A stretch of DNA of 64,000 nucleotides from an uncultured bacterium (lineage in GTDB: Bacteria; Patescibacteriota; JACMRA01). Where the stretch lies: assembly GCA_963784355.1 (NCBI GenBank), contig CAWAQU010000006.1, positions 14,517 to 78,516 on the forward strand, given 5' to 3'. The translations under genes and the position numbers were made by a program. Positions 4,072 through 56,200 of the stretch are shown here, piece after piece. Below the pieces are notes generated by a model, which made no database searches, was not told the DNA's origin, and worked only from the letters and a program-made list of their open reading frames with translations. Each line of letters opens with the position of its first letter. Within the stretch, counting starts at the first letter, position 1.

Positions 4072-4145
4072 TGGAGGCAACGACCGGGTTCGAACCGGTG
4101 TACAAGGTTTTGCAGACCTCTGCCTAACCACTCGGCCACGTCGCC
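4072..4145 (-). tRNA. tRNA-Cys (GCA), CCA encoded
   Basis: GGCGACGTGGCCGAGTGGTTAGGCAGAGGTCTGCAAAACCTTGTACACCGGTTCGAACCCGGTCGTTGCCTCCA folds as a cloverleaf with anticodon GCA and TTCGAA T-loop. Confidence 0.97.
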
Positions 4146-15766: not shown

Positions 15767-15778
15767 TTATACGAAGTC
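15767..15778 (-). repeat. dif-arm copy 1 (GACTTCGTATAA on minus strand)
   Basis: Exact 12-mer in the xth-pgi gap; minus strand reads ACTTCGTATAA-TAAAAA-TTATTAAAATT. Confidence 0.85.
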
Positions 15779-15781
15779 AAT

Positions 15782-17032
15782 ATGCTTAAAGTAAATTTTC
15801 AAAATATACACGGTTTAACAGATCAAAATTCTATCTCAAAAGAGAGTTTATTGCAGGCTAGAAGTAAAATGGACGACCTGTATAATCAAATTTTAAACCA
15901 CAAACAAGGTTTTTTAGATTTACCCAATGCTTCCACAGAGGAGATTAAAACATTTACTCAACAGGTTACCAGCAAGTATAAAAATATTGTAATTTTGGGT
16001 ATTGGTGGGTCAATGCTTGGTCCAAAATGTATTCTAGATGCTCTCTATACATATAAAGATGGTCTTAAAGTCTACTGTTTAGATAATATTGATCCGGATC
16101 AGATTAGTATAATGGAATCTAGAATCGATCTCAAAGACACACTATTTTTAGTTCAAACTAAATCAGGTACTACTCCGGAAACTATTGCCCAGTATCTTTA
16201 TTTTAAAAAAAAAGTCGAAGCGGAAAATTTAGATTTCAGAAATCACTTTGTATTTGTAACAGATCCTGAAAAAGGTTATCTTAGGAACATAGCTAATCAA
16301 GAACAAGTTCCATGTTTTGAAATTCCACAGAACGTTGGTGGAAGATTTAGCGTACTTACACCTGTAGGCTTGCTCGTTGCTTCTCTGGTCGGTATTAATA
16401 TTGACGAGATTTTAAGCGGAGCTAAATACAGTACTGAGAATTTACTCAATGATGCCTATGATTTTGCGTATATCAACTACGAGTTAAGCGCCAAAGGAAA
16501 AAATGTTCATGTGATCATGCCGTACGCAACTAAATTGAAAACTTTTTCTGAATGGTGTGTGCAGTTGATAAGTGAAAGCATAGGTAAAAAAAGAAGTGTT
16601 GAAGGTAACATAGATAATGTAGGAGTTACACCATTGCCTGCTGTTGGAGCTACCGATCAGCACTCTCAATTGCAATTATTTGCCGAAGGTCCTAATGATA
16701 AATTAATTACTTTTATAGAAGTTGAGAAATTTGACACAACTGTTGCAATTCCTGCCAATTCTGAAAGTAGTTTAAGTTATTTAAATAACCATAGTTTCAA
16801 TGATTTAATCAAGGCTGAATTTTATGGAACTAGAGAAAGCCTAACTGAAGCAGACAGACCAAATATAACTATATCAATTGAAAAGCTGAATGGAAAGAGT
16901 CTGGGAGCTTTATTCATGTTTTTTGAAGTATATACTGCTTTTTTTGGTGAAATGTTAGGAGTAAATACCTTTAATCAACCCGGGGTAGAAAGAAGCAAAG
17001 TATTGGCCAGAGAAAATATCTTAAAATTCTAA
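15782..17032 (+). CDS. pgi: Glucose-6-phosphate isomerase
   Basis: GIGGS, KSGTT, VGGRFSVL, QLISESIGK, DQHSQLQL, FNQPGVE. Confidence 0.96.
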   Translation: MLKVNFQNIHGLTDQNSISKESLLQARSKMDDLYNQILNHKQGFLDLPNASTEEIKTFTQQVTSKYKNIVILGIGGSMLGPKCILDALYTYKDGLKVYCLDNIDPDQISIMESRIDLKDTLFLVQTKSGTTPETIAQYLYFKKKVEAENLDFRNHFVFVTDPEKGYLRNIANQEQVPCFEIPQNVGGRFSVLTPVGLLVASLVGINIDEILSGAKYSTENLLNDAYDFAYINYELSAKGKNVHVIMPYATKLKTFSEWCVQLISESIGKKRSVEGNIDNVGVTPLPAVGATDQHSQLQLFAEGPNDKLITFIEVEKFDTTVAIPANSESSLSYLNNHSFNDLIKAEFYGTRESLTEADRPNITISIEKLNGKSLGALFMFFEVYTAFFGEMLGVNTFNQPGVERSKVLARENILKF

Positions 17033-25003: not shown

Positions 25004-25015
25004 TTATACGAAGTC
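25004..25015 (-). repeat. dif-arm copy 2
   Basis: Minus strand GACTTCGTATAA-TGTATA-TTTGATGAAAT, intergenic. Confidence 0.85.
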
Positions 25016-28976: not shown

Positions 28977-29087
28977 AGGGTTGAATTTTAGTCATTTACT
29001 AGCTTTTGTCAAGTAAGCCTTATATCATATATGATATATTATTGTATTTTTGACATTAAAGGTACTAGCTGCAATTATATGATTATA

Positions 29088-29990
29088 ATGAACTATTATA
29101 TAGTTTTACCGAGTAAAAAGATACCGCAGCCCTATTTAACTTATAAGTATACTGAAGAGTTGGAAGTAGGTAGAATAATTGAAGTAAACGTTAGAAATGC
29201 TAGTGTGTGGGCTGTGGTACTAAAAAAAGTGGATGTAAGTAGCTTAAAATTTGATGAATCCAAAGTTAAAGAGATTGAAAATAAATTACCTGTAATATTG
29301 GGGGAGCAAAATATAAAATTTTTATATGCCTTTAGTCAAAATACTTTTAACACATTAAATACAGTTTTAAATTCATTTTTACAACCATTTAAATTATTAA
29401 CAAAAAAGCAATGGTCTGAACTTAGTTCGAAACAAGTGGAATTGGCTCAAAATACCCCCCCGGCTTCTGGAAGTGGTTTCAATGTATTATTTGATCTAAA
29501 TATATATACCACGTTACGTATAATATACATTATACGAAGTCATTTAAATACAACAAAAAAAAGAATACTACTAGTCTTCCCTGAAACAAAACACATCAAT
29601 CGATTTTTAGATGAACTTACTAATCAACAAGATTTTACTGAAATAAAGAAAAAGCTCGACATTTTTATATATACAGGCTCTCCGGATAAAGAATCAAAGA
29701 AAACTGTGTGGAGTATTTTAAATCAAAATTCTAAGACTACTATTATACTTTCAACTCGCAGCGGACTCTTTCTACCATTTAATAAGTTGGATGAAATAAT
29801 ATTAGTTGATGAAGCAAATTCATTTCATATTCAAGACCAAAATCAGATTTATTTTGATACGCGTGACGTTATTTACCTAATGGCCCAGAGTTTTCAGTCC
29901 AAATTGACCTTCTTAAGTACCCTACCCTCAATTAGGCTCTATAATTTCTATCAGAGCGAAGTTTTTACTCAGTTTAAGGAAAAGTATTGA
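29088..29990 (+). CDS. priA: PriA N-terminal part (3'-DNA-binding domain + degenerate helicase lobe)
   Basis: LTYKY..ELEVGRIIEV, LLVFPE, STRSGLFLPF..L..IILVDEA, YFDTRDV, FLSTLPS; no intact Walker A. Confidence 0.78.
   Translation: MNYYIVLPSKKIPQPYLTYKYTEELEVGRIIEVNVRNASVWAVVLKKVDVSSLKFDESKVKEIENKLPVILGEQNIKFLYAFSQNTFNTLNTVLNSFLQPFKLLTKKQWSELSSKQVELAQNTPPASGSGFNVLFDLNIYTTLRIIYIIRSHLNTTKKRILLVFPETKHINRFLDELTNQQDFTEIKKKLDIFIYTGSPDKESKKTVWSILNQNSKTTIILSTRSGLFLPFNKLDEIILVDEANSFHIQDQNQIYFDTRDVIYLMAQSFQSKLTFLSTLPSIRLYNFYQSEVFTQFKEKY
29513..29540. other. Chromosomal dif-like Xer recombination site embedded in priA
   Basis: GTTACGTATAA-TATACA-TTATACGAAGT (11-6-11); minus-strand spacer TGTATA equals the E. 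coli dif spacer; KOPS converge on it; G/C skew flips. Confidence 0.8.
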
Positions 29991-31030
29991 TGTCTCAAAA
30001 AAAAGCTTTATTTATACATTGTAGACGTGGACTTTATCAGCTAACCAAATGCAAAAGTTGTGGTCATAGTTTTTCTTGTGATAATTGTGATGCTAAACTG
30101 GTTACTTATAAAACAGGTGGTAGCAGTCTTGAACTTCTGTGTCACCAGTGCCAAACTTATTATAAGTATCCAAATCATTGTCCTAAGTGTAACTCAAAGG
30201 AAATATTTTCTAAATATGGTGGTATTGAAGAATTAGCGCAGTTATTGGAAAAAGAAGATTATAAACTTATTAGACTTGATCAATCAAAAAACTTCCCTAC
30301 AAATCATGCAAATGAAATAGAATCAAATATTGAGGGTAAAAATATACAAATTTCTTTTAGACAAAATAAAAATGACCTAGTAAGCCCACATTTAACCAGT
30401 AATTTAGAAGAATATGATATTTACCTACATACAAGAATATTTGACCCGCTTTTACCCTACTCTATTTTTGATAAAATAGTATTTGTACAAGCTGAGAATT
30501 TACTTGCTAGCCCTGATTATCTAGTAAGCGAAGAAATAATCAAAGCAACTGCTGAAATTTTACTTCAATGCAATACAACTAATGAAATCATATTTGATAC
30601 AAATGCCCCTGAATTGGAATTATTTGAAGAGTTAAAAAAACTCCACTACGAGTATCCTGAAAATCACAAGGTCTATGAGTGGTATTTAGAATTTTTGGAA
30701 AAAGAGAAATCAAACAGGCAAAAATACGGTTTTCCACCATTCAAGAATTTACTTTTGATTACTACTCAGGAAAAAGATATTCAAAGCTCCAATAAAAAAC
30801 TAGAAACAATTACTAATTATCTGGATAAGATGAGAGGTGAGTTACCTGAAGTAAGTTGGTCTACCCCCTACCCTGCGAGGTTTTTAAAACGAAAAAATAT
30901 GTATTCACATCACATTTTGCTACGTTTCCCGCGCCAATATGAACATTTCAATCTTTTAAGAAAGGAAATCGGAGAAATTGTAGAGTTATATAGAGTACAA
31001 GTAAGGCTTAACCCCAGACATTTGTTTTAG
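29990..31030 (+). CDS. priA: PriA C-terminal part (Cys-rich Zn region + CTD)
   Basis: RRG..CKSC..CDNC..CHQC..CPKC, GIEEL, R.KYGFPPF; ATG overlaps the upstream TGA (TGATG). Confidence 0.82.
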   Translation: MSQKKALFIHCRRGLYQLTKCKSCGHSFSCDNCDAKLVTYKTGGSSLELLCHQCQTYYKYPNHCPKCNSKEIFSKYGGIEELAQLLEKEDYKLIRLDQSKNFPTNHANEIESNIEGKNIQISFRQNKNDLVSPHLTSNLEEYDIYLHTRIFDPLLPYSIFDKIVFVQAENLLASPDYLVSEEIIKATAEILLQCNTTNEIIFDTNAPELELFEELKKLHYEYPENHKVYEWYLEFLEKEKSNRQKYGFPPFKNLLLITTQEKDIQSSNKKLETITNYLDKMRGELPEVSWSTPYPARFLKRKNMYSHHILLRFPRQYEHFNLLRKEIGEIVELYRVQVRLNPRHLF

Positions 31031-31099: not shown

Positions 31100-31111
31100 G
31101 ACTTCGTATAA
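31100..31111 (+). repeat. dif-arm copy 4
   Basis: GACTTCGTATAA-TGTATT, intergenic. Confidence 0.85.
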
Positions 31112-31559: not shown

Positions 31560-31571
31560 GACTTCGTATAA
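31560..31571 (+). repeat. dif-arm copy 5
   Basis: GACTTCGTATAA-TAATTT, intergenic. Confidence 0.85.
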
Positions 31572-40368: not shown

Positions 40369-40380
40369 GACTTCGTATAA
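40369..40380 (+). repeat. dif-arm copy 6
   Basis: GACTTCGTATAA-CATGTTAAAG in the femX-dnaG gap. Confidence 0.85.
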
Positions 40381-43037: not shown

Positions 43038-46000
43038 TTAGTTACCACCACCCGCTTGAGGAACCCAAGGATTTGTATTAACTCCATTATTAAATTGGAT
43101 TGACGGCCTTACTGGTTGCACTATTGGTGGTGGAGTTGTTGGTGCAATAGGCGTTACTACTTGCCCTGGTAATGACCCTGGAAGAGTTTCGGGAGTTCCA
43201 ATTCCGCTACCCACACCTACATCAGGTTTAACTATAACAGGTGTTTCAGGCACTACTACTTCGGGTACTTGTGGTTGTACTGGCACTGTTGGCTGTGTTG
43301 GAGTTACTGGTGGTTGCACTATTGGTGGTGGAGTTGTTGGTGCAATAGGCGTTACTACTTGCCCTGGTAATGACCCTGGAAGAGTTTCGGGAGTTCCAAT
43401 TCCGCTACCCACACCTACATCAGGTTTAACTATAACAGGTGTTTCAGGCACTACTACTTCGGGTACTTGTGGTTGTACTGGCACTGTTGGCTGTGTTGGA
43501 GTTACTGGTGGTTGCTCAATTACTGGAACTACATCAGGCTTTGGCACTACTACTTCTGCTGGAGTTGATGTTGGTACTGTTGGTGATTGAACATTACTTG
43601 TTGGTATATTTACCTCAGGTTTAACTGGAGCAGTAGGTATTGGCCCCTGTTGCCCTGTTGTTGCTGGAGTTGTTGTACCAGTTGAAACACCTTCATTAAC
43701 GTTCACACTTGGTTTTGGGGCTGGAGCAGTAGGTACCTCTACTCCATTACCTGTTGAACTTGGTTGTGTTGGTGATGTAGATCCTCCTTGATTTGGAGTT
43801 ACATTTTTAGGAGCCTCAGGCGTTGGCCCTTGATTTGGCTGTGATGTTGGAGTTGTTTCCGAAGTTGCATTACCTTGCTCCCTTTTAATTTCTTTTTTCA
43901 CTTCAGGTTGGCTATGACTAGGTGTAGCTACAAGTGAAATTCTGCTATTTCTTTGCTCAATTTCAGCTAAATGTACTTCTTTCACAGCTTTCAAAGCTTG
44001 ACATAGTGCCACATCCTGCAAATCGCTTTCTGTACTCATAGTTACTTCCATGTATCTGCTACTACCAATACTTAGGAATAATTTTCCTGTAAATAGACCT
44101 AGAATGCTTGATGATGATCCTTTTTTCAAGTTGAATGAAGTAATATCACTTCTAGCGAATCCTTCTATAATCATTTTAGCATTTTTAGTATCTCCGTTTG
44201 CAATCAAAACATTCAAGCCTTCAATTACATCATGCATAGTTACATTAGGTGCAACATTTCTATTGGGTATTCCTGCTAATTTTTGTTTTAGCTGCGCATC
44301 TGAAAGAGGTTTAAGATTTGTAATATCTTTTCCGTAAATTGAAATTACATTGTTTTTGAGTGCAGGGAAGCATGATTCAAACATTTTTTTAGCAGATTCA
44401 TGCAATTTTCCAAGTGATTCACCAGCTTCAACTGTATTATTTCCTTTTATTGAATCAACAGCTAATGCAGCTCCACTCGATTTAGTTTTCTGCTCATATT
44501 GAGGTACAGTAAGACATTCTGCTGCTGTGGCTACTACACTAATATTTCCTTTAAACTCAGGTTGATTGACTAAAGACAAATTGTTGCACCACAAAATTTC
44601 GAAAGAGTGGTCATTAAACATTCTAATCCTGGTATTACCATTTTTCAGCAATGTAGCCGTAACATCAAGTTTAGTATTGCTGTTATTTGAAACAACCTGG
44701 GTAATAACCTTATTTAATAAACCAGCCTCACTAACTGTGGTAATTTTACCTCCACCATTTGCAAATTTCTTTATTTCAGAAGCATTGAAATCTCCAGAGG
44801 ATTTTAAGTATGCTGCTGTAACAGCCTTGGGACTATGTCCGACTTTCTTAATCAAGCTTTGGATTTGTGCTTTATCATGATCTAATCCTTTCAATCTTCC
44901 TTCAGCTACAATTCCACCTGCCTGTTTTAGGTGTCCTCTAATTTCATCACTTAGATCATTTGTATGACCTGCCATTTGTTCTAGACTAGAACTTGCTCCA
45001 GTTACTATAACAGGATTACTTCCTGCTACACCCGTTCTTACACCTCTATTTCTTTCAGTTGAAATAATCAAAGCAGTGTTTTGAATAGCTTTAGCAACTT
45101 GAGCAGCTTCCTCAGCACTATTTATTGTAAAACTCTTACCATTTCCAAGATTGATAGTGTAATTAATTTTACCACTTTTATCACTTACTGCTTTAGTAAA
45201 CGCTGTAATAAATGACGCGCCATTAGCAGTTTCATTTTTAATTACTCCCGCCAATTTTGGATCAGTTTCAGCAGACTTATAAACAGCTATAGTTTGTAAA
45301 AAGTCATCTTTACTTTCCACTCTAATTCCACCTTTATCTTCACCGCTCCAACTAACAAAACCTCCATATTTTAAAAGTGGTACAACAATATGTAATAGTT
45401 CCGCTGCCCTTGGTAAGCCATATTTTACTTTGTAATCATTAGAAATTTCATTGTAAATTTTATTTAATCTGGCCACTTCTTGTGGATTATTTGGACTGAA
45501 ACCGATTTCACTATTAGTACTGCCTCTTTCATAAATTCCCCAAGGAGTAGGTATAATTATTCCTGAAGTACTAGCTTTTCTTACAAATTGTTCTTTACTC
45601 AAAGTCTCTTGCCCCTCTGCTTTCAATAATGCATTTAATTCAGAAAGGTTATTATTGAATTCTTTATCTGTAGCTGTACCTCTATTCCTGCTATATAAAT
45701 CACTGTAGCGGTATTGATTTGCCAGATCTAACGCTTCTTTAGCTTGCTCGCTAGTTAACTTATTATACTTTGCCATATGAGCTAAATCGTTTAATCTTCT
45801 AGGCATTCCTCTTGATTCAGAAAAATTACCTTCTCCAAACCCAGCAACAATTTTATTCATTCTACTTAGAGTCACATCCATAAACGCTGTCACTCCATCA
45901 GCACCCAACGCAGCTTGTGCAAGATTTATATCTCTGATATTTAGTCGGCCATTACTAGCAAGTATTCTATCACCTCCAGGTAACCAACGTAATCCAACAG

Positions 46001-49000
46001 CAATCTTAACAAATCTACTTTGAGCCGGAGTTAGTTGATTATATGAAATTTTACCATTACTAAAGTCTGCATAAGTACTTCTTAACGCATTTAGTAAAGC
46101 TCTGGTATCCATATCAGATTTTCCTTCTGCCCCAGCTGCCAAAATTCTAGTTACTGATACTAAATCTGTAGGTGGAACACCTATTTTTATAAACCTGTCC
46201 CTTAACTCCTTATCTGCAACAGTAGCTTTAAACCGACTAGCATCCAAGGCTTTTGATAGTGAAATTTCTTTACCGTCTTCACCAGTTATTCTCATGTTTT
46301 CAAGAGCAGCTAGCCCGTCTAATCCATTTGCGTTAGGATTTACACCTGGCTCAATTCTAGATCTTACTCTAGGATCATTAGGGTTTACATCTATAATCCT
46401 ATCTCTAACCTCATCTTCGGACAGACCCGTATTTATCATTTTAGATAAATTTTCTCTAGATAAAGCAATATCAGCTGAATGTTCACCATTGATATGTTCT
46501 CCGGCAATATAAAAATTTGCAATTTGTGAAGTATTACCAATTCTATAAGCCTTCTTAGTTACAGTATCAATATATACCAATTTAAATGTATATTTCTTTG
46601 TTTCTTGATTCCTATCCGCAACAAATCCAAGTGCAGTGTTGTTTTTATCAGCCTCACTAACAATCTGTACATCATTCAAACTTAATTCAGGACCTCTAGT
46701 AAGTGTATCAACTCCGGTAAAGGTAACTTTTACTAGTTCAATAACGTTGTTTCCGGATATTCTTGCATTAACATTTTTATTTAAAGTATTCTCCTTATCG
46801 GCTACATTAATAGCTTTGTTAGAATTTTCTAATTTGCTAGCTGAATTTTTTACATTGTTTAAGTCAGCCCTTGCAACTTTTAGTTGTTTTTGCAGTTCAT
46901 TACGTGTTTTAGGATTTTTTGTACCATCCAATTTCTTTTGCAAATCAGATATTTTAGATTCTAAAGGCTTAATTTTAGTATTATAGGACGCTGACTGTTT
47001 ATTTTGCTCCAAAACAATCTTATTATTAGCACTAGGTTTAGATATTACTTCTGCTTTATCAACTATCACTTCATTTCCGCCGTTAACAGCATTAATAACA
47101 CTTGAACCAGCTCCATTATTTTCATTGGTTTCTACACTTTGATTACTTACATTAACTTTAGTTACATTAGCTACGGCGTTTTCCGGATTTGGAATTTTCA
47201 ACCCTAGATTTTTATAAACTTCAGCAACTGGCATGTCTGTCCTTAAAGCATAAGCTTCGACTTTTGTTCTCAATTGAGTATCGGCATATGTTAGTTGATC
47301 AGCTATTCTTTGAACTTGCTTTTCATTAGCAACAAGCTGAGATTCAATCCTTCGTGCAATGGTTCTTCTAGTTTCTACACTTCCTTTATTATTAGCCCTA
47401 TATTGCTTTCTCAATTCCTCATTTTTTAGATATAATCTTCTGGATTCAGCTTCAAGTCTTCTTTTTTCTGCTAGTGTACCCTTAAACTCCGGTGTAACTT
47501 TATTTATATCAATATTATTTCTTTTAGCTTCAGTAGTGGACTGCTGTTGTAGTTCGTCATTTTGCTCATTTGAGTCTTCATTCCACCATACTGTCTTTGG
47601 GGAGTTTGGAGTTTTATTTGACTGTGCTACTACTTGAGGTTTCGGCTTGGGTTCAACTTTTTCAGCATTTACAGACACTGATTTAACCCATCCTAATTCT
47701 TGTTTAGCACTCTCACTTGGTCTATAAACTACATATTCTGCTTTTCCACCAACATTGAATGGTCTAACAAGCAGTTTTTCAGGATTACCCTTTACATATC
47801 TAACTAAGAACTCCTGCCCGTTTAATTTCACCGTTTCATCCTTTATACCTGTGATGAGCTGCGAAGCTTTAATAGTTGTCTTAGTTAACAAACCTCTCAT
47901 TAAATCATTGCTAAATCTAGCTTCTTGGATTTGTAAGTTATTATTTTCTGCAACAGGATTATTGCCATTATTTACATTTTGATTAGTAGGCTCCGGCTTT
48001 GCATCCACTGCTATATCCGGATAGGCATTTACAGCTACATTAGGATAAATCTTAGAATTTTTGTTTGCTTGAGCTTGTTGGTTAACTATAGTCGGTTTAT
48101 CCCAACCCAATGAAACTCTAGTATCTTTTGTTGGTTCATAAATCACTGACTTACTGTCACCACTGTCACCCCTTACAACAAATGTTCTAACAAGTACTTT
48201 TTCATTCGTGCCTTTAACATAGCCAACTTTAAAACTCTCCTCATTTACTGTTACAGACTGTATTTTTGTACCGTAGGTTATTTGTGAAGGAGTTAAATTA
48301 CTTTTATCAACCCAACGATCCATTGATTTATTAAATCTAGTTTCTTGAGCGGCCAGATCACTAATATTAAGATTAGCTATTTGTACTTGATTGGGCACTT
48401 GTACAGGCTTCGCGTCATTTTGATTTATAGCTTGAGTTTTAGACTCAACAGGACGTGCTGTAGGTTTAGTTACAGGTTTTGTTGGTTCAACATTAGGAGT
48501 TACTATAGGCTTTGGTTTACCTACATTTTGAGCTACAGCTTGACTATTATTTCTTTCAATAGCAACTAATAATTTTTGTCTTGCACCTTCAGAGATTGGG
48601 TTACCTTGTGAATTGATAAAGTATTTAAGTGATTCTTCACTAGGTACAACTACTTTTCCATCTTTTCTAATCAAATACCAAGCTTCTCCACTTTTTGATT
48701 TATAAATTGAAAATGGCTCTCCTCCATAGGTGATTTTAGTATTGGCACTAATCAAATTTGAACGAGATATTTTGGCAGACTCTAATTCAAGTACAGGCCT
48801 TAATGGAGCATTTTGAACTACTTCTGTTCTTGTTGGTTGTTTTGGCTTAGACTCAATTGGAGTTGGAGCTGCTGCTCTTGTTTGAGCTTCTTTAAGCGCT
48901 GATGCTGAACTTACAAGCTTACTTCTAATCTCTGCAGGTAAAGTTTGGAATCTTTGATCTTTTGATACCCTATCACTTACTACAAAAGCTTCATTATTTT

Positions 49001-52000
49001 TGTTGACTAAGTATAATCTATTTCCGTCTTTACTTACTCTAAAAGTGAATTCTAAATTACCAGCAAGCTTTATACCTTCAATTCCTCGATATGAGAAGGT
49101 TTTGGTGTCTCTTGCAATATTTATATTAGGAACTTTGGTTAGATCAGTTGGTGCAAGTATATTATTTAAGGGTAAAAAGTTGAGGTCAGAAGCACCCTTT
49201 ATATCAGGTATACTTTGATTTTGAGATATAGCTGCAATCTTTTCCTCTGTAGCATTTGAGTCGTTAAAACTTGCATTAGGTGTTAATTTACTAGTATCAG
49301 GTAAATTTCTACTACCCTGAGCATTGTTTACACTGGTAGGAGCTTCACTATGTTCTGCATGAGCAATTTTAGTAGTTTGCCCTGCCCAAGGATTAATAGG
49401 TTTAACAATATCATTTGTACTTACAGTTGTAGTTTGAGAGCCTTGAACTGTATTTAATACCTTATTCAAAGAACTTCGATAGTCACTTTCCCCATTAATT
49501 TTTCTAGCACTAGCAATATCAAGCTTTGTACCTATAATTTTATTATCACCGGTAGCAGTTAACGAGTATACAGATCCTGATTTATCAGTAAACACTGTAC
49601 CTGAATTTCCTCTTCCTGTGCTTAAATCACCATTTTTACCTAGAATATTGTGTATTTCAACTCCACTTAAAGATTTTATCCCGTCACTAGTATTAAATAC
49701 ATATAAACCTTGTCCTAAGCTTTTCGCCGGAGAAAGATTTGTTTTGATTGCTTTTGATTCTAGATTAGATTTTATGATATTAAAGTCACCTACACCCAAA
49801 TTAGTACCTTTTGGTACTGCCACCAATAATTCACCACCAATTGTATAGACATCGTTATTTGTATTAAGCTTACCATATTCTTTTACATCGTGACCGGCAA
49901 AGCTAATAGCTTCAATTTTTTTACCCGAAGTTGAAGTAAAATCAACATTGTAAGTACGAGATGATAATCCAAACACTCCTCTGAGTGAAGCTGCCATGTC
50001 TGCTCCAACTGATTTTCCGTTAAATTCGATCTTTTGTAAATTTTTCTCAGCTACAGTTGCCACACTATACATCCCTTCATGAACAGCTTTACCAGCCTCA
50101 GTTTTCATTGCAAACTCCCCACCAAATTTTACGGCTCCAATTACTCCATTCATCAATCTACCTTGAGCATATATAGAACCACTATTTAATAAAGCTTTTG
50201 CAGCTATATCCTTCGCATAATCACCATCGGTTAGTAATCTTTTTATTCCAGCTGGACTTATAAACCTTCTATTTTTTTCATGCGCGTTAATTGATTCCTG
50301 TAATTCGGCATCACTCGCAACTTCTTCATTTCCTTCCAATAAAGCTTCCAGTCTGGCTGCCATCCTAATTGCATCAGTTCTACTAGTAGGCTGATTTACT
50401 TGAGCTTCAGCATTAAACCTCTCCATGAAATCTTTTCCGAAATGGCTACTTGCAATTGCAGTTGCCTGGTACAATTGTTGAGCATCCACACCTACTTTTG
50501 AATTCATAGTTGTATAACCCAAAAGTTCGCTTGTAATACCTTTCCAGTAATTTTTATATTTATTATTTTGGGCATCTACAGCTTCTTTAAGACCGGCAGC
50601 TAATAATTGACTTACATAAGCCTCGGATTTCCCCTGTGCTATAGCAGCATTAATCAAATTCGGTAAACCCATTTCCTGATCCTGAGTCAAAAAAGTACCT
50701 GCCAAAATTCCCGTTGAAGCTGGAATCCATGAGGTATATGGATTAAACATGGCTCTTGATACAACTCTACTCATACCTTTCAACAAAGCTCTAGGATAAA
50801 ACTTCCATTTACCATTTTTATCTTTTCCGACAAAATTATAAACACCTCTAGCGTCACCGGCAGTATTCGTTATACCAATACCCTCATATCCTTCAACCTG
50901 AGTATTTTGCAATGTTTCTATGTGCTGATCCAGCTTGCCTGCTTTTTTAGCAAACGAAGTGATTTTATACTGCCCCCTTATAAAGTCAAAAGCTTTGTTA
51001 AATATACCTATAAGCTCTGCAAGTGACTTATATTTTTCAATGTCTTTAAATCCACCCTGAGCAAAACTGTTTAAATCTTTTTCAAATCCCATTCTAGTTA
51101 CACTAGCCAATTGAGTTAAACCTCTGAATAGAGCAGTATTTTCCTTATTTTTTTGTCCTGAAAGTTGTTTACATAAATTTACTAAAGCATTTTTAGCTAA
51201 CTCATTTTTGTCCTCCAAAACTGAACTATTTACAACAGCCTCTAGTCCGGTCATTTTCTTACCATCGACATCTAGCTCTACAAACTTGCTATCTGGACTT
51301 ATAATAGCTTTCCAAGTTTCAGTGATATCAGTACCTGAAAGCATTCCCGGTAGTTTTAGCTTAAACCTATCAGCAATAAACCTTTGACCCCAACCCAAGC
51401 CTCTACTCAAGACGCTTTTGCCTTTCTCTGTATAATCTGTTGTATCTTTAGTTAAATTAATACCAAAAGTACCTGTTAGTACATTGGCTAAAGCACTAAT
51501 CGAATCCTCATTACTTAAAGCTGTAATAGTTTCTTTTCTATCTTTTTGAATATTATTATCTACTTCCAATTCTCTAGTGTATTCTTCTACTCTATATCGC
51601 CTTATATATTCAAGCTTAAAAGCAGATTTTGATAGATTAGCAGCTAAAGCAGATTGAGGATATTTTTTTTCATTATTAATATCGGCTGGAATCAATTCAA
51701 AATATGATGTCAAATCTAAATTTCTCCTTAAAAATCTTTTAAAATCAGAATACTTTGAAGACGCAAGCAATTTAACAATTAATTCATCATTGATTTCTAA
51801 GCTACCGTTACTTTTCTCCTCAGGTGTCAAAGTTTTGCTTATAAATTCTTCAAATGACTTTAGTTTAGAGTTTTTACTTCCCTCTTCTTTACTTAAACCC
51901 TCAACAATAGAATTTGTCATTGGATCTGACTTTCTAAAAAATGGAACTATATTATTTTTTGAAGCTAGATTATCTTGCTTACCCCTATTAAACGGTACTA

Positions 52001-52073
52001 TGTTATTCGCTGCATGCTGATTTTTCAATAGGTCTTTATTAGAGCTTTTAGATTTTGATTCAAGTGTAAACAT
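43038..52073 (-). CDS. Giant 3011-aa hypothetical protein with internal repeats and Pro/Thr/Val-rich C-terminus
   Basis: Uninterrupted 9-kb ORF; no signal peptide seen. Confidence 0.88.
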   Translation of the reverse strand: MFTLESKSKSSNKDLLKNQHAANNIVPFNRGKQDNLASKNNIVPFFRKSDPMTNSIVEGLSKEEGSKNSKLKSFEEFISKTLTPEEKSNGSLEINDELIVKLLASSKYSDFKRFLRRNLDLTSYFELIPADINNEKKYPQSALAANLSKSAFKLEYIRRYRVEEYTRELEVDNNIQKDRKETITALSNEDSISALANVLTGTFGINLTKDTTDYTEKGKSVLSRGLGWGQRFIADRFKLKLPGMLSGTDITETWKAIISPDSKFVELDVDGKKMTGLEAVVNSSVLEDKNELAKNALVNLCKQLSGQKNKENTALFRGLTQLASVTRMGFEKDLNSFAQGGFKDIEKYKSLAELIGIFNKAFDFIRGQYKITSFAKKAGKLDQHIETLQNTQVEGYEGIGITNTAGDARGVYNFVGKDKNGKWKFYPRALLKGMSRVVSRAMFNPYTSWIPASTGILAGTFLTQDQEMGLPNLINAAIAQGKSEAYVSQLLAAGLKEAVDAQNNKYKNYWKGITSELLGYTTMNSKVGVDAQQLYQATAIASSHFGKDFMERFNAEAQVNQPTSRTDAIRMAARLEALLEGNEEVASDAELQESINAHEKNRRFISPAGIKRLLTDGDYAKDIAAKALLNSGSIYAQGRLMNGVIGAVKFGGEFAMKTEAGKAVHEGMYSVATVAEKNLQKIEFNGKSVGADMAASLRGVFGLSSRTYNVDFTSTSGKKIEAISFAGHDVKEYGKLNTNNDVYTIGGELLVAVPKGTNLGVGDFNIIKSNLESKAIKTNLSPAKSLGQGLYVFNTSDGIKSLSGVEIHNILGKNGDLSTGRGNSGTVFTDKSGSVYSLTATGDNKIIGTKLDIASARKINGESDYRSSLNKVLNTVQGSQTTTVSTNDIVKPINPWAGQTTKIAHAEHSEAPTSVNNAQGSRNLPDTSKLTPNASFNDSNATEEKIAAISQNQSIPDIKGASDLNFLPLNNILAPTDLTKVPNINIARDTKTFSYRGIEGIKLAGNLEFTFRVSKDGNRLYLVNKNNEAFVVSDRVSKDQRFQTLPAEIRSKLVSSASALKEAQTRAAAPTPIESKPKQPTRTEVVQNAPLRPVLELESAKISRSNLISANTKITYGGEPFSIYKSKSGEAWYLIRKDGKVVVPSEESLKYFINSQGNPISEGARQKLLVAIERNNSQAVAQNVGKPKPIVTPNVEPTKPVTKPTARPVESKTQAINQNDAKPVQVPNQVQIANLNISDLAAQETRFNKSMDRWVDKSNLTPSQITYGTKIQSVTVNEESFKVGYVKGTNEKVLVRTFVVRGDSGDSKSVIYEPTKDTRVSLGWDKPTIVNQQAQANKNSKIYPNVAVNAYPDIAVDAKPEPTNQNVNNGNNPVAENNNLQIQEARFSNDLMRGLLTKTTIKASQLITGIKDETVKLNGQEFLVRYVKGNPEKLLVRPFNVGGKAEYVVYRPSESAKQELGWVKSVSVNAEKVEPKPKPQVVAQSNKTPNSPKTVWWNEDSNEQNDELQQQSTTEAKRNNIDINKVTPEFKGTLAEKRRLEAESRRLYLKNEELRKQYRANNKGSVETRRTIARRIESQLVANEKQVQRIADQLTYADTQLRTKVEAYALRTDMPVAEVYKNLGLKIPNPENAVANVTKVNVSNQSVETNENNGAGSSVINAVNGGNEVIVDKAEVISKPSANNKIVLEQNKQSASYNTKIKPLESKISDLQKKLDGTKNPKTRNELQKQLKVARADLNNVKNSASKLENSNKAINVADKENTLNKNVNARISGNNVIELVKVTFTGVDTLTRGPELSLNDVQIVSEADKNNTALGFVADRNQETKKYTFKLVYIDTVTKKAYRIGNTSQIANFYIAGEHINGEHSADIALSRENLSKMINTGLSEDEVRDRIIDVNPNDPRVRSRIEPGVNPNANGLDGLAALENMRITGEDGKEISLSKALDASRFKATVADKELRDRFIKIGVPPTDLVSVTRILAAGAEGKSDMDTRALLNALRSTYADFSNGKISYNQLTPAQSRFVKIAVGLRWLPGGDRILASNGRLNIRDINLAQAALGADGVTAFMDVTLSRMNKIVAGFGEGNFSESRGMPRRLNDLAHMAKYNKLTSEQAKEALDLANQYRYSDLYSRNRGTATDKEFNNNLSELNALLKAEGQETLSKEQFVRKASTSGIIIPTPWGIYERGSTNSEIGFSPNNPQEVARLNKIYNEISNDYKVKYGLPRAAELLHIVVPLLKYGGFVSWSGEDKGGIRVESKDDFLQTIAVYKSAETDPKLAGVIKNETANGASFITAFTKAVSDKSGKINYTINLGNGKSFTINSAEEAAQVAKAIQNTALIISTERNRGVRTGVAGSNPVIVTGASSSLEQMAGHTNDLSDEIRGHLKQAGGIVAEGRLKGLDHDKAQIQSLIKKVGHSPKAVTAAYLKSSGDFNASEIKKFANGGGKITTVSEAGLLNKVITQVVSNNSNTKLDVTATLLKNGNTRIRMFNDHSFEILWCNNLSLVNQPEFKGNISVVATAAECLTVPQYEQKTKSSGAALAVDSIKGNNTVEAGESLGKLHESAKKMFESCFPALKNNVISIYGKDITNLKPLSDAQLKQKLAGIPNRNVAPNVTMHDVIEGLNVLIANGDTKNAKMIIEGFARSDITSFNLKKGSSSSILGLFTGKLFLSIGSSRYMEVTMSTESDLQDVALCQALKAVKEVHLAEIEQRNSRISLVATPSHSQPEVKKEIKREQGNATSETTPTSQPNQGPTPEAPKNVTPNQGGSTSPTQPSSTGNGVEVPTAPAPKPSVNVNEGVSTGTTTPATTGQQGPIPTAPVKPEVNIPTSNVQSPTVPTSTPAEVVVPKPDVVPVIEQPPVTPTQPTVPVQPQVPEVVVPETPVIVKPDVGVGSGIGTPETLPGSLPGQVVTPIAPTTPPPIVQPPVTPTQPTVPVQPQVPEVVVPETPVIVKPDVGVGSGIGTPETLPGSLPGQVVTPIAPTTPPPIVQPVRPSIQFNNGVNTNPWVPQAGGGN
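43113..43515. repeat. Exact 198-bp tandem duplication (66 aa x2)
   Basis: tggttgcact recurs at 43113 and 43311 with identical sequence in between. Confidence 0.92.
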
Positions 52074-53222: not shown

Positions 53223-56200
53223 ATGCCTATAGAGCAAGCTACAAATAAAAATCTTGGCCAAAATCATCCCAAGCCAATCAAACCTTTTATTAGACCAAAC
53301 CAAAATATGACAGAAAAACATAACCTTAGTAATTCTTCAATTGAGAGATCTTTAAGGAATATTCAAGAGGTTCAAAATCTACCTGAAAAAGAATCACTAG
53401 AAAACCGTCTTAAACGACTGAAGACTAATTGGACTGAGACAGAATTAAACTGGCTTGAAAACAAGGTACCTACAAATTTACAACCTTGGTTAGAACTACA
53501 GATGGACAATTTAAACAATTTTTTGTCAGGTCTGGACCAAATTGATTCAGTAACTTCCAGTATTAAAAATATACAAGAGGATTACGCTAAAAATGGCCTG
53601 GCTGGAATGGGGGCTGGGAAATTATTTGGTAATGCTGGGAAACTAGCACTTAGTGGGGCCCAAATCTTAAAAAACAAGATAACCGGTGGTGGTGGTACTA
53701 AAACCAGTTTTGATAGATACAAACAAATTTTGAGTAAAGTTAGAGATTCTAAAAAGGGAATCAGTTTTAATGAGTTTATAACACTAAGGCAACAATTACT
53801 TAACTCCACTTTAAATGAAATAAAAGATCCTCAAAAAAGAGAAAAATTAGAGAGCTTCATGGTTGAGGATGAAACAAATATTGCCTTGATGGCAAAAAGA
53901 GTTGCTCTGGAAGGTAATTCATCAGATACAAAAATTAGTGCCGGAATCAAAGCTAATATTGCCTCAGCCAATAAAGAAATGCTTCGTACAAATATGGTTT
54001 TGGGTGCTGCAACTGTCGGAGCTACTGCCCTATTTGGACCTGTAGGTTCAGCTTTAGCTATTTCAGTAAGAACCAAGTTTAGATTAGGTCAAAATTTTGA
54101 GAGAGATGTAAATTATAATCTGGCAAAAAACCAAGAAGAGATTCTGAAAAAAGTAAGCCAAGATTTTGTAAATGTACTTTACAGCCCAGACTTCGCTTCA
54201 GTATTTACTGACTTAAATGATGGCCAAGAAATATTACAATCCGATTATGACACACTATACTCTACATTGTTGGAAGCTAATGCAATTGACGGCTTGTCTA
54301 ACGAAATTCAAGAGCAAACTGTAGATTATTTAATAACTCTAAGAAAAGCAAAGAAGGAAGGAAAAATTACTAATAGTCAAAACAATCAGACAAATGCTTT
54401 AAAAGAAAGGGTGACTAAAGTAAGAGGGTTAGTAAACGTAATCAAGGAAAGTGCTAAAGAAGTAAAAATTGCAACTAACAGAAAAGTTGCAGAAGCTCAA
54501 GCTAGAAGTGGAGGAGTTGTAGAAATTAAAGATAGTAATGGTAATATTTTAGAAACTAAAAAAGTTGAAGGAGCTAAAAAAGTTGCTTTCGGAAAAGAAA
54601 TCATGGGTCAAAGAAGTTTTAGATTTTTACAGGCAGCCTTAGCAGCGGCCGGATTGGGATTTGCAGCAAATAAAATCATGCATACTGATGATATTTTACA
54701 AGGACCACTCTTGAAGGCACTTGGAAATACTGTACAAAAAGCGGATTATCAACATTTCAACGGAGCAATGAGAAGCTTTTTAGTAGAACATGACATTGTA
54801 GAATCAGGTAAAGTGAATAAATTTAATATCCGTGGTATCGAAGGAGCGATTGTAAGTCCTCATGATACAGATGGCTTAAACGAAATGGTGCAAAAAGGCT
54901 ATGTTGTGGATGTGGACCATTCAAACGAAGCTAGAACTGTGCTTATCAAAGCTGGACAACGCCTGGAATCACAAATAAACCCTGACCAATTCATTACAAG
55001 TGGTATAAAAGTACAATTTGACCCGGAAAAAATGACAGCTACTCGCGATGGTTTGCTTAAAATGAAAATTCCTCAAGATCAACTAAGTAAAAACTATGTA
55101 GAAATGAATTTAGGTGGTCAAAGTCGTGTATTTGGATCAGGACACTCTAATGAAGTAATTTCAATCAATGGTGAAAAATATTATTTAGTAGGTAAAAATA
55201 ATGGAGAAGTAGTTTTTGCTAAATCCGGAGCTAATGTGCCTGAACAAATGGATGAATTATGGGCTAATACGCCTAAACCTCCTGGGCCTCAAGAACTTGA
55301 GTTGCCTGATTATCTTGAAGGGATAACAAAAAAATATGCTGAAGATGGGCTAATCAAACCTGAAGAAAATAGCAAAATCATTGCTGAGCTGAATAAAAAA
55401 TTAGATGAACTTGTTTCTCAGCAAAAGACTTATAACTCTATAGAACAAAAAAAAGTCACCGGTCTTATAAAAACGCTTCAAAAATTTAAAAATCAGAATT
55501 TACTTATTGAAGATAAAAGACTATACATTTCTACTAACAACAATCCAATTAACTTTAGATTTAGTGCTAAAGCTTATCAAGGATTCAACGGATTAAATAA
55601 CCAGATAAGTGACGGAAAAATCAATAAAGCTGAAGCAATAGAAATATTGAACATACTTAAAGCCGAGCAGAATTCATGGAGATTTGAAAATAAGACCTTC
55701 CCGTTAGAATTACTGAAAAAGCAGTTGCAAGAATTAAAGCCCAACGAATACATATTACTTTCAAATAAACCAGACAGCTTCTCAATAAATGGTTCTGCAA
55801 AATTTGAATTAAATGGTGATATTTATATACAGAAAGTCAAGCAAGTAGATATTAATGGCAATGATATAGGAGTAAATATACCAAGCAAGACTCCTATTGG
55901 TATACAACCAGCACAAGCGGCTACAGCACAAACTCCTCAAGGTACAAACGCAATACAAGCACCAAAACCAGTTGCAGCTAATCCGGCAAACGCAGTGGCT
56001 CAAGTGACAACACCTACAGGGGCTACACCACAAAGCACAGAAGTAGATATGGCTGGAGCTAGTGATAATGGAAGAAATAGTGGTTGGGGCGGCTTTAAAA
56101 GAATTGACGATGCCAGAAAAGAGGTTGGAGCTAATGCACCACAATCAAAAGTAATGAGTAAATTTTTGCAACTACAAATAGAAGCAGGTTCGGGTAATAA

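Follow-up and report, generated by a model that had tools for sequence, protein, structure and literature searches.

A probable chromosome dif site read in frame within priA in a family of uncultivated Patescibacteriota

We report that the 28 bp at 29513-29540 of the analyzed window (the whole 64,000-nucleotide stretch of DNA, from an uncultured bacterium of the Patescibacteriota) very probably constitute the chromosome dif, embedded in frame in priA, at which a Xer-type tyrosine recombinase would resolve chromosome dimers at the terminus. The inner arms of this 11-6-11 site are frozen at the DNA level across the whole family, most genomes have just one copy, the copy of a relative assembled as a single contig falls at the terminus as defined by skew, and a polar half-site motif that occurs genome-wide converges on it. 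The last of these observations, the convergence of TTATACGAAGTC half-sites on the priA site, is new relative to the first-pass annotation of this DNA. The comparison set comprised the window's genome (G000), 25 other genomes of its family and 34 genomes of more distant families; 61 genomes were searched overall.

Results and discussion

A dif-like site within a split priA gene

The 28-mer, GTTACGTATAATATACATTATACGAAGT, lies within the plus-strand ORF 29031-29990 and is composed of two inverted arms of about 11 bp around a 6-bp center, with an inner ATAA-N6-TTAT core and a perfect inverted repeat formed by the inner 7 bp of both arms. The frame through it reads T161-L-R-I-I-Y-I-I-R-S170 of the N-terminal priA ORF; the coordinates and the LRIIYIIRS reading given by the first-pass annotation are thereby reproduced. 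The site and the gene that carries it are made up as follows:

29513..29540, strand (.): dif-like Xer site, GTTACGTATAA-TATACA-TTATACGAAGT, 11-6-11 layout
29513-29523: left arm, GTTACGTATAA
29524-29529: central region, TATACA
29530-29540: right arm, TTATACGAAGT
29031..29990, plus strand: priA N-terminal ORF, 319 aa, with the 3'-DNA-binding domain, a variable linker and a helicase lobe-1 remnant; the site occupies codons 161-170
29987..31030, plus strand: priA C-terminal ORF, 347 aa, with a Cys-rich zinc-ribbon region and the PriA C-terminal domain

The same layout is seen in the 28-bp archaeal dif, as quoted in PMC11840125; its central hexamer, TGTACC, is also that of the relatives G016, G018, G022, G006 and G025, and the ATAA-TGTACC-TTAT core of the Thermococcus kodakarensis site is common to several relatives' sites. 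That dif is normally intergenic is confirmed by published surveys, in whose relevant sections 94-96% of known sites are non-coding (96.3% of predicted proteobacterial sites and 93.9% of all predicted sites; PMC3025954, PMC2731167). The present site differs in this respect from Escherichia coli-type XerCD/dif in that it lies within a conserved gene, and specifically within an open priA frame in 23 of the 26 family genomes. The coding location counts against the identification as dif. An intergenic place is a usual feature of dif and not a mechanistic requirement.

In the window's genome the gene is split into two ORFs that overlap by 4 nt in different frames. Both the N-terminal 3'-DNA-binding domain (PF17764, E 9e-06, in ORF 29031-29990) and the C-terminal domain (PF18074, PriA_C, E 1.9e-07, in ORF 29987-31030) score above their cut-offs, and a Zn_ribbon_PriA match in the second ORF (E 0.041) falls below its own. 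The TIGR00595 model aligns with the N-terminal ORF only from model position 18, at residue 168, and with the C-terminal ORF over model positions 202-497; its best score, 104.7 bits, is below the equivalog cut-off of 230, and the other PriA models are likewise below theirs.

The site lies at the skew-defined terminus of a relative and has a candidate recombinase

The position of the site relative to the terminus is clearest in G018 (1,272,640 bp), the only single-contig relative, whose circular closure is assumed. Its cumulative GC-skew has a minimum at 251 kb (251,000) and a maximum at 899 kb (899,000), and its sole two-armed site lies at 914,113, 15 kb from the maximum. The whole-genome skew proposed as a check by the first-pass annotation therefore agrees with a terminus position, and the better two-armed dif at the skew extremum that would have told against it was not found, no better palindromic candidate occurring within 150 kb of the maximum in G018. 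The 15-kb distance is comparable to the 7-35 kb tabulated for dif sites in PMC2731167.

The window's own contig is consistent with this position but coarse. Its strand-corrected GC3 skew passes from plus-strand-leading to plus-strand-lagging across about 12-32 kb of the window, which yields no more than a 20-kb plateau, and cumulative GC3 skew peaks about 12 kb to the left of the site; G000 is in 13 contigs, and a sign change is also present in several others (C1, C3, C9, C10, C12). The inversion of skew at the site had earlier been deduced from G/C counts in two adjoining 420-bp segments. These counts are exact (G74:C54 over 29101-29520; G53:C76 over 29521-29940), but they are not evidence by themselves, as the skew of neighboring 420-bp windows ranges between -0.46 and +0.37 and the local inversion is within this noise; we have replaced them with the strand-corrected GC3 skew and the whole-genome skew of G018.

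A candidate for the cognate recombinase is a Xer homologue of 359 aa with Phage_integrase and SAM-like domains, encoded outside the window (G000:C4:15546-16622). One Xer-like ortholog is present in each of the 26 family genomes, and in G018 it is the only PF00589 gene, hence the only tyrosine recombinase, 30 kb from the site. It scores 198, 186 and 194 bits against the XerC, XerD and XerA models, for which the NCBIfam cut-offs are 335, 330 and 220; it is therefore best termed Xer-like rather than a typed member of one of these named subfamilies. The G000 genome also encodes an FtsK of 735 aa (G000:C7) with the 4TM, alpha, motor and gamma domains, the FtsK_gamma match (E 1.6e-21) being above its cut-off.

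Taken with the 28-bp length, the two 11-bp arms, the 6-bp center, the ATAA/TTAT core, the low G+C content and the single copy, the presence of FtsK with a gamma domain resembles the Escherichia coli-type XerCD/dif system, from which the present one differs in that only one Xer-type recombinase was found. One recombinase and a strongly palindromic site are features of archaeal XerA/dif, XerS/difSL and XerH/difH, and the nearly equal scores on the XerA, XerC and XerD models are in keeping with the archaeal system. The difSL and difH sites are of a longer type, and the 28-bp site described here is instead like classical dif. As in single-recombinase systems, xer lies near the site (6-43 kb) in some of the genomes; in G000, by contrast, it is not adjacent but on a different contig. 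The single 359-aa Xer homologue would bind both arms, and FtsK would activate it at division through its gamma domain. Exchange between identical sister sites would regenerate the site exactly, so that the priA reading frame would never be altered.

Polar half-sites converge on the priA site

The arm sequence TTATACGAAGTC also occurs as single half-sites, in 20 copies against 0.27 expected. The enrichment, about 75-fold, is confined to the exact 12-mer, one-mismatch variants being at random level (10 against 9.6 expected). Of the exact copies found on the contig of the site, 40 in 12 genomes, every one points to it, and in G018 all 15 copies of TTATACGAART are directed at the priA site. The latter are all within 255 kb of the site, split 7 to 8 between its two flanks, and span about 40% of the chromosome. 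The motif is 11-12 nt long and its density is one per approximately 34-57 kb. In the window the copies directed at the site are:

15767..15778, plus strand: half-site TTATACGAAGTC, intergenic, left of the site, ending 4 nt before the ATG of the ORF 15782-17032
25004..25015, plus strand: half-site TTATACGAAGTC, intergenic, left of the site; 19 nt here (AATATACATTATACGAAGT) are common with the site and correspond to its central region and right arm
31100..31111, minus strand: half-site TTATACGAAGTC, right of the site, in the gap after the priA stop, the first copy past the orientation flip
31560..31571, minus strand: half-site TTATACGAAGTC, right of the site
40369..40380, minus strand: half-site TTATACGAAGTC, intergenic, right of the site

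The polarity of these elements is confounded with gene orientation, in that the genic copies of G000 are 17 sense and 2 antisense. A promoter role, considered in view of intergenic copies upstream of co-oriented genes, was set aside on account of the exact-only enrichment, the occurrence of genic copies in all three reading frames (offsets determined by hand) and the flip of orientation at the site in 12 genomes. A repeat driven by an encoded peptide was rejected for this same use of three frames.

Ter and KOPS are asymmetric leading-strand motifs that flip orientation at the terminus, and the half-sites resemble Tus-Ter and RTP-Ter sites in being polar and terminus-flanking; their number and spread in G018 are like those of Ter sets. 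KOPS occur at a density far above one per 34-57 kb, and the half-sites are thus far sparser, with a length of 11-12 nt. They further differ from both Ter and KOPS in being identical to a dif arm. KOPS, which FtsK recognizes, guide towards dif according to PMC2800217. Searches of G000 and G018 with the Tus and RTP profiles (PF05472 and PF02334) gave no match, and no fork-trap protein of these types was found in them.

Another parallel is with Bacillus subtilis, where XerD unloads SMC near ter. Reportedly, in work ascribed to Karaboja et al. 2021, XerD there acts on SMC at half-dif sites. Extra single Xer-arm-like sites, scattered terminus-proximally and apart from dif, are common to both cases. 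The half-sites of the present family are strictly polar. The SMC hinge (PF06470) and ScpA (PF02616) gave no match in G000 (81% complete) or in the single-contig G018, and all SMC_N matches are in frames of 704 aa or less. A Bacillus-type Smc-ScpAB was accordingly not found in these two genomes, and a role of the half-sites in SMC unloading is weakened.

The few, polar half-sites of G018, none of them more than 255 kb from the site, are closer to Ter or matS-like sets than to recombination targets, and one might suppose that a sequence-specific protein other than Xer, such as a terminus-organizing or fork-arrest factor, binds both the half-sites and the priA palindrome as its dimeric site. We consider this improbable: known dif sites have the same 11-6-11 layout and ATAA-N6-TTAT core, the two-armed copies on mobile-like DNA adjoin recombinase, terminase and partition genes, and Tus and RTP homologues were not found in G000 or G018. 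The motif is further linked to Xer by 4 genomes in which the start codon of xer has an exact half-site 19-78 nt upstream.

Copy number and mobile elements

Exactly one two-armed site is present in G000 and in 20 of the 25 other family genomes. Three genomes have more (G001 and G015 with 2 each, G020 with 3), the extra sites being confined to phage-like or plasmid-like contigs, as would be expected of a Xer target exploited by such elements; an exact copy is lacking in G021, which has a site with one mismatch, and in G002, which is 84% complete. Contig ends fall inside the left arm of the site in G001 and 58 nt beyond it in G012. One public soil-metagenome run, which contained 25% of the sampled words, yielded six 151-nt contigs, none of them across the site.

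These contig breaks, along with the similar two-armed sites on phage-like or plasmid-like contigs, could be taken to mean that the site is mainly an attB for the integration of mobile elements, which keep it without any role in dimer resolution. This is slightly less probable still than binding by a protein other than Xer, as an attB alone leaves the terminus position, the family-wide single copy and the chromosome-wide convergence of half-sites unexplained. Furthermore, Xer-using elements as a rule make use of a dif that is already there, as is generally held and as is stated in PMC9226527; the attB and dif roles are therefore compatible.

Dual use of one stretch of DNA

The pattern CGTATAA-N6-TTATACG is found at homologous priA codons and in the same frame in 23 of the 26 family genomes, and G025, from the sister family, has the same site in the same priA frame within an 814-codon open frame. 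The exact core is present in 23 of the 25 other family genomes as against none of the 34 genomes of more distant families, and a control with the reversed pattern gave 0 matches in all 61. PriA proteins of the genomes that share the priA site are only 29-56% identical. The priA ORF is open through the site in 23 of 23 cases, with lengths of 323-573 aa where it lies wholly inside a contig; four ORFs truncated by a contig end (197-323 aa) are likewise open through the site. The openness of the ORF in every genome indicates dual use of one stretch of DNA, as the first-pass annotation had proposed, rather than a dif in a dead gene.

Among the genomes with the site, 22 show no variation in the inner 7 bp of either arm, and G021 has one mismatch there. 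Third-position identity averages 0.53 over 230 aligned priA codon columns and reaches 0.95 or more in only 5; 4 of these 5 are the arm codons CGT, ATA, ATT and ATA. The third positions of both arms are thus frozen among family relatives while the rest of priA diverges, which is the constraint on synonymous sites that the first-pass annotation had suggested looking for. The peptide that it expected to recur does so as well: RI(I/M/R/K)xIIR is recurrent in family PriA proteins and always encoded by the site. A natural control is provided by G017, whose PriA has RITDLLY at the homologous place and no site, its only two-armed site being in non-coding DNA on a different contig.

Such conservation might be ascribed to the protein or the mRNA, through a requirement for an essential R-I-x-Y-I-I-R helix, the peptide being conserved in 23 ORFs, or for an mRNA hairpin, into which the arms are able to pair. 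This is very improbable, in that selection on the protein cannot account for the invariance at third positions of the Arg and Ile codons, and the PriA of G017 does without the peptide. The hairpin is weak (-6.1 kcal/mol, z -0.94), 39 of 200 shuffles folding as well, and a tRNA at 4075-4145 was the only match of an Rfam scan, which left the site without any; neither need would account for the half-sites or the terminus position. Least credible of all is a chance AT-rich palindrome in a genome of 33% G+C: although the 20-nt core with up to 2 mismatches has at least 1 match in 23 of 100 shuffles of the 64-kb window, and more perfect TAA-N6-TTA palindromes occur elsewhere (G018 has 5 and G000 has 11 in which 9 or more of 11 positions pair), it is excluded by conservation across genomes and not by window statistics, in that the site recurs at homologous codons in 23 of the 26 family genomes and the reversed control gave a null result in all 61.

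Predicted dif sites in annotated coding sequences are on record in the two surveys by Carnoy & Roten 2009 and Kono et al. 2011 (PMC2731167, PMC3025954), one of which counts 6 of 161 while the other gives about 6%; these are mostly in hypothetical or phage ORFs, with one in a transporter gene on a third chromosome. For such sporadic cases there is no evidence of long-term coexistence, whereas here one housekeeping gene has kept the site in an unchanged frame in at least 17 genera and a sister family.

The protein that hosts the site is unusual in itself. As the first-pass annotation had observed for the window, the Walker A motif (GxGKT) is absent, and this holds for all 23 family PriA ORFs, that of G000 included; a bare GKT occurs only in the G018 ORF, on the upstream side of where the P-loop would be. 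DExN or DExS stands at the Walker B position in 15 of the 23, DEAN in G000, and the combination of Walker A and DExH motifs looked for in PriA is thus missing. The further claim that the helicase function has decayed stands as regards these motif losses, from which a decay of the activity itself may be surmised. Canonical GVTGSGKT does occur in families of the phylum other than this one; 10 of the 24 priA loci in such families also lack Walker A, and a dif-like site at that place was seen in none of the 24. The loss of Walker A is therefore not tied to dif. The arms dictate the PriA peptide R-I-x-x-(I/L)-I-R, which is the cost of the site, and the hosting region corresponds to the helix after the lost P-loop, where the protein seems to tolerate the imposed peptide.

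A possible polar system built on the dif arm

A more extensive proposal, which we advance tentatively and hold to be somewhat less likely than its converse, has two parts: that dif has resided in priA since before the split of the family from its sister family, dictating seven codons of a P-loop-less PriA, and that the arm half-sites are a new polar element of the chromosome. Monomers of the single Xer recombinase on TTATACGAART half-sites might then serve as one-way barriers or signposts, permissive in the direction from origin to terminus and obstructive away from the terminus, for replication forks, FtsK or RNA polymerase. They would thus fill the role of Ter/Tus, KOPS or matS in a lineage where an SMC hinge, ScpA, Tus and RTP were not detected. 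The half-site upstream of xer in four genomes suggests that Xer might in addition be autoregulated.

Conclusion

A cis-acting chromosome-maintenance site and a protein frame that share 28 bp over at least 17 genera represent a case of long-term dual coding, in which the DNA site visibly shapes the protein, with RIxYIIR where the site is present and RITDLLY where it is not. As P-loop-less PriA recurs in the phylum, one may ask what the function of an ATPase-dead PriA is. For a small-genome, uncultivated lineage whose replication and segregation are otherwise unmapped, a dif, a likely single Xer recombinase and a terminus marker are now defined. In fragmented assemblies of the family, contigs can be oriented and the terminus located by means of the site and the polar 12-mer, and the polarity of the half-sites points to a possible chromosome-polarity system based on the arm of a recombinase site.

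A dif-like site within the priA coding sequence

The two-armed sequence GTTACGTATAA-TATACA-TTATACGAAGT (arm-centre-arm) lies, as the first-pass annotation had claimed, inside a priA coding sequence in G000, the genome of the window, where it is translated in frame as T-L-R-I-I-Y-I-I-R-S (codons 161–170 of the N-terminal ORF):

29031–29990, plus strand: priA N-terminal ORF, 319 aa, with the Pfam PriA 3'-DNA-binding domain
29513–29540: dif-like site
29987–31030, plus strand: second priA ORF, with PriA_C and a weak PriA zinc-ribbon match

Both ORFs align to NCBIfam PriA models, every score being under the cut-off. They occupy different frames and overlap by 4 nt (29987–29990), directly preceding an A8 run; the split (29031–31030) could represent two genuine genes or a frameshift. 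Among relatives, the N-terminal ORF often stands alone (323–390 aa), is followed by a 280–350-aa ORF in only some cases, and is longer in six genomes (436–573 aa), whereas priA of the sister family is one 814-codon open frame. Elsewhere in the window, two very large ORFs lie back to back, beginning about 13.5 kb right of the site (43038–52073, minus strand, 3011 aa; 53223–59765, plus strand, 2180 aa), and the only Rfam match is a tRNA (4075–4145, minus strand).

Alignment to the TIGR00595 priA model starts only at model position 18 (residue 168), and to the solved PriA chains of E. coli and Klebsiella at residue 214. Anchoring on the conserved ILLVFPE block would place the site at the helix after the P-loop, in agreement with the location proposed earlier. 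The absence of Walker A, likewise noted from the sequence, extends across the family: GxGKT is found in none of the 23 PriA ORFs, and one bare GKT, in the single-contig relative G018, lies upstream of the P-loop position. In 15 of these 23 ORFs the Walker B position is occupied by DE-x-(N/S) (DEAN in G000). Elsewhere in the phylum, other families have PriA with the canonical GVTGSGKT, but Walker A is missing in 10 of 24 priA loci outside the family (loci including L127, L128 and L133–L140); a dif-like palindrome within 250 nt of the P-loop position is seen in none of these 24. Loss of the P-loop thus recurs in this phylum without depending on the site; judged from these loci, dif being hosted in priA is not its cause.

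Conservation and copy number

Protein searches matched the N-terminal part of priA in 25 of the 26 family genomes (29–56% identity). Read on the correct strand, nnnnCGTATAA-N6-TTATACGnnnn occurs at the homologous place in 23 of the 26, although the members are related and these counts are not independent events. The frame is identical in all 23, with one mismatch in the G021 site, and the priA ORF is open through the site in every case (323–573 aa if wholly within a contig; 197–323 aa in four cut by a contig end). The LRI(I/M)YIIRS-like peptide anticipated from the window recurs in all 23 as x-R-I-(I/M/R/K)-(Y/N/C/V)-(I/L)-I-R-x. In the sister-family genome G025 the site reads FRIMYLIRN inside the 814-codon frame, and this one-piece PriA also lacks Walker A.

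Three family genomes lack the priA site. The G001 assembly stops at GTTACGT within the left arm and resumes on the next contig roughly 26 nt beyond the site (C35 start, C9 start; L115, L116). G002, with a completeness of 84%, has neither a priA match to this query nor an exact site. G017 offers a natural control: the corresponding stretch of its PriA reads RITDLLY and contains no site, and the only two-armed site in that genome falls in AT-rich non-coding DNA, 118 nt off a contig end. The G012 assembly also breaks, 58 nt past the site (C18 end, C14 end; L040, L034); the breaks in G001 and G012 could reflect population heterogeneity, such as integration of an element there, or chance.

Aligned by codon, the 23 ORFs give 230 columns in which at least 18 sequences are represented; identity averages 0.48 for amino acids and 0.53 for third positions. 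Third-position identity reaches at least 0.95 in only 5 of the 230 columns, 4 of which are the arm codons CGT, ATA, ATT and ATA; the synonymous-site constraint that dual coding had led the first-pass annotation to expect is therefore present. The central region of the site and the protein on either side are highly variable, with many indels.

The exact core CGTATAA-N6-TTATACG is present once in G000, once in each of 20 of the 25 other family genomes, and in 2–3 copies in G001, G015 and G020; it is absent in G002 and G021. One copy is present in the only sister-family genome, and none in the 34 genomes of other families of the phylum. A reversed-pattern control gives no match in any of the 61 genomes; the small genome sizes (0.5–2 Mb) are compatible with the CPR affiliation guessed in the first-pass annotation. 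Chance, as an explanation of the site, fails on several observations.

Extra two-armed copies and their neighbours (gene names from by-eye reading of ORF sequences)
G001, contig C13: ParA-like gene
G001, contig C21: 201-codon short tyrosine recombinase frame and UmuC-like gene
G020, contig C9: terminase-like gene
G020, contig C42: serine recombinase
G015, contig C108: HTH antitoxin-like gene

These extra copies sit on mobile-looking DNA. The proposal that the site is purely an attB nevertheless fails on several observations.

According to two surveys, 96.3% of 161 proteobacterial dif motifs and 93.9% of all predicted sites are non-coding, and those in coding regions fall mostly in hypothetical or phage ORFs (PMC2731167, PMC3025954); in contrast, the family site is inside priA in 23 of 26 genomes. 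Our literature search found no dif maintained in a housekeeping gene, though the supplementary tables of these surveys may list further coding cases, and no paper combining Patescibacteria with dif and XerD.

Position relative to the replication terminus

The G and C counts given in the first-pass annotation are exact, but the local skew inversion it drew from them carries no weight alone, as nearby 420-bp windows range from -0.46 to +0.37. The G000 genome (1.14 Mb, 13 contigs, 33% G+C) does have real strand asymmetry in third-position G versus C when plus- and minus-strand genes are separated. By this measure the plus strand of contig C6 goes from leading to lagging: the cumulative curve peaks at about 17.5 kb of the window, remains on a plateau to about 31.5 kb and falls steadily after. 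The site (29.5 kb) falls within this plateau, a coarse placement, with sign changes on other contigs too.

The decisive test was whole-genome cumulative skew in G018, the only single-contig relative (1,272,640 bp): the curve has a single minimum at 251 kb and a single maximum at 899 kb, and the sole two-armed site of this genome maps to 914,113, within priA. No better dif candidate lies at the skew extremum: within 150 kb of the maximum, no palindrome of the TAA-N6-TTA type pairs 9 or more of its 11 arm positions.

Polar half-sites converging on the site

The right arm of the site plus one base (C) forms the 12-mer TTATACGAAGTC, of which G000 has 20 copies versus 0.27 expected from base composition, an approximately 75-fold excess; one-mismatch variants number 10 versus 9.6 expected. 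The window has six copies against 0.03 expected, a number reached in 0 of 100 shuffles:

15767–15778, plus strand
25004–25015, plus strand
29530–29541, plus strand: the site's own arm
31100–31111, minus strand
31560–31571, minus strand
40369–40380, minus strand

Their orientation flips at the priA site, being plus up to 29530 and minus from 31100. Genic copies use all three reading frames (LYEV, YTKS and IIRS; offsets by hand), which places the constraint on the nucleic acid and not on the peptide; conservation of the site through protein or RNA constraint fails on several observations. The 12-mer is found in 21 of the 24 other family genomes searched (1–12 copies each; reversed control 0–1) and in none of 16 genomes outside the family.

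To our reading these polar half-sites are a new observation. All 40 exact copies on the same contig as the site, its own arms left out, point towards it, in 12 genomes (G000, G004, G006, G007, G010, G012, G013, G016, G018, G019, G021 and G022). In G018 the relaxed form TTATACGAART is on the leading strand in 15 of 15 copies, 7 left of the site (-255 kb to -18 kb) and 8 right (+7 kb to +251 kb), with none in the origin-proximal 60% of the chromosome. Its genic copies are sense in 13 of 14 cases, though only 56% of genes are co-oriented with replication, and other words containing TTATACG have no skew (32 leading versus 36 lagging). In G000, 25 of 28 half-site copies are on the locally G-rich strand, the exceptions being one in a mobile-like C3 region and two lying no more than 5 kb from the switch point; 17 are sense in genes, 2 antisense and 9 intergenic.

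Recombinase, FtsK and the function of the site

Contig C4 of G000 encodes a full-length Xer-like recombinase (359 aa; SAM-like and catalytic domains) with similar XerC, XerA and XerD model scores, all under cut-offs. Orthologues are present in 26 of 26 family genomes, and that of G018, 30 kb from the site, is the sole PF00589 gene there. FtsK is on C7 (735 aa; 4TM, alpha, motor and gamma domains). SMC hinge, ScpA, Tus and RTP families have no match in G000 or G018, leaving FtsK and Xer as the only terminus-related factors found among the six families searched.

At G000:C2:23074–24148, outside the window, lies a second copy of xer that shares 92–95% identity with the C4 gene. Its sequence is read across 2 TAG codons and then in a second frame; this copy is a pseudogene, or else the contig is a strain variant. 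At G000:C3:14848–16180 (L001 1474–2800, also outside the window) a short tyrosine recombinase (200 aa) consists of just the catalytic domain; the 730 bp of non-coding DNA after it contain three half-sites, two of them plus and one minus, along with a small HTH-like ORF. This looks like a mobile element carrying Xer-arm-like sites; a similar short recombinase adjoins the two-armed site in G001:C21.

In four genomes an exact half-site precedes the xer start codon by 19–78 nt and shares its orientation (G018:C1:883299; G022:C6:50845; G007:C32:1657; G021:C59:46671), suggesting that the recombinase may be autoregulated; G000 has no exact half-site upstream of xer. Their presence there and their identity to a dif arm point to probable binding of the half-sites by Xer. 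KOPS form a dense guide, whereas the family half-sites are few and, in G018, confined to the terminus half. Their small number, this restriction, and strict polarity with respect to replication and transcription would suit a one-way barrier or signpost better than a guide of the KOPS type. A role in SMC unloading, as by B. subtilis XerD, is unlikely because neither G000 nor G018 has SMC hinge or ScpA matches.

Use of the site by another DNA-binding protein fails on several observations. The anatomy of the site, the constraint on its DNA, its near-uniqueness, its terminus position and the convergence of the polar motif on it, with Xer and FtsK both present, are most simply accounted for by the site being dif. 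The Xer-like recombinase would bind both arms and be activated there by FtsK, so that chromosome dimers would be resolved at the priA site. Identical sister sites would exchange conservatively, leaving the priA frame intact. The only cost to PriA would then be the imposed heptapeptide, which would fall where the protein had already lost its nucleotide-binding role.
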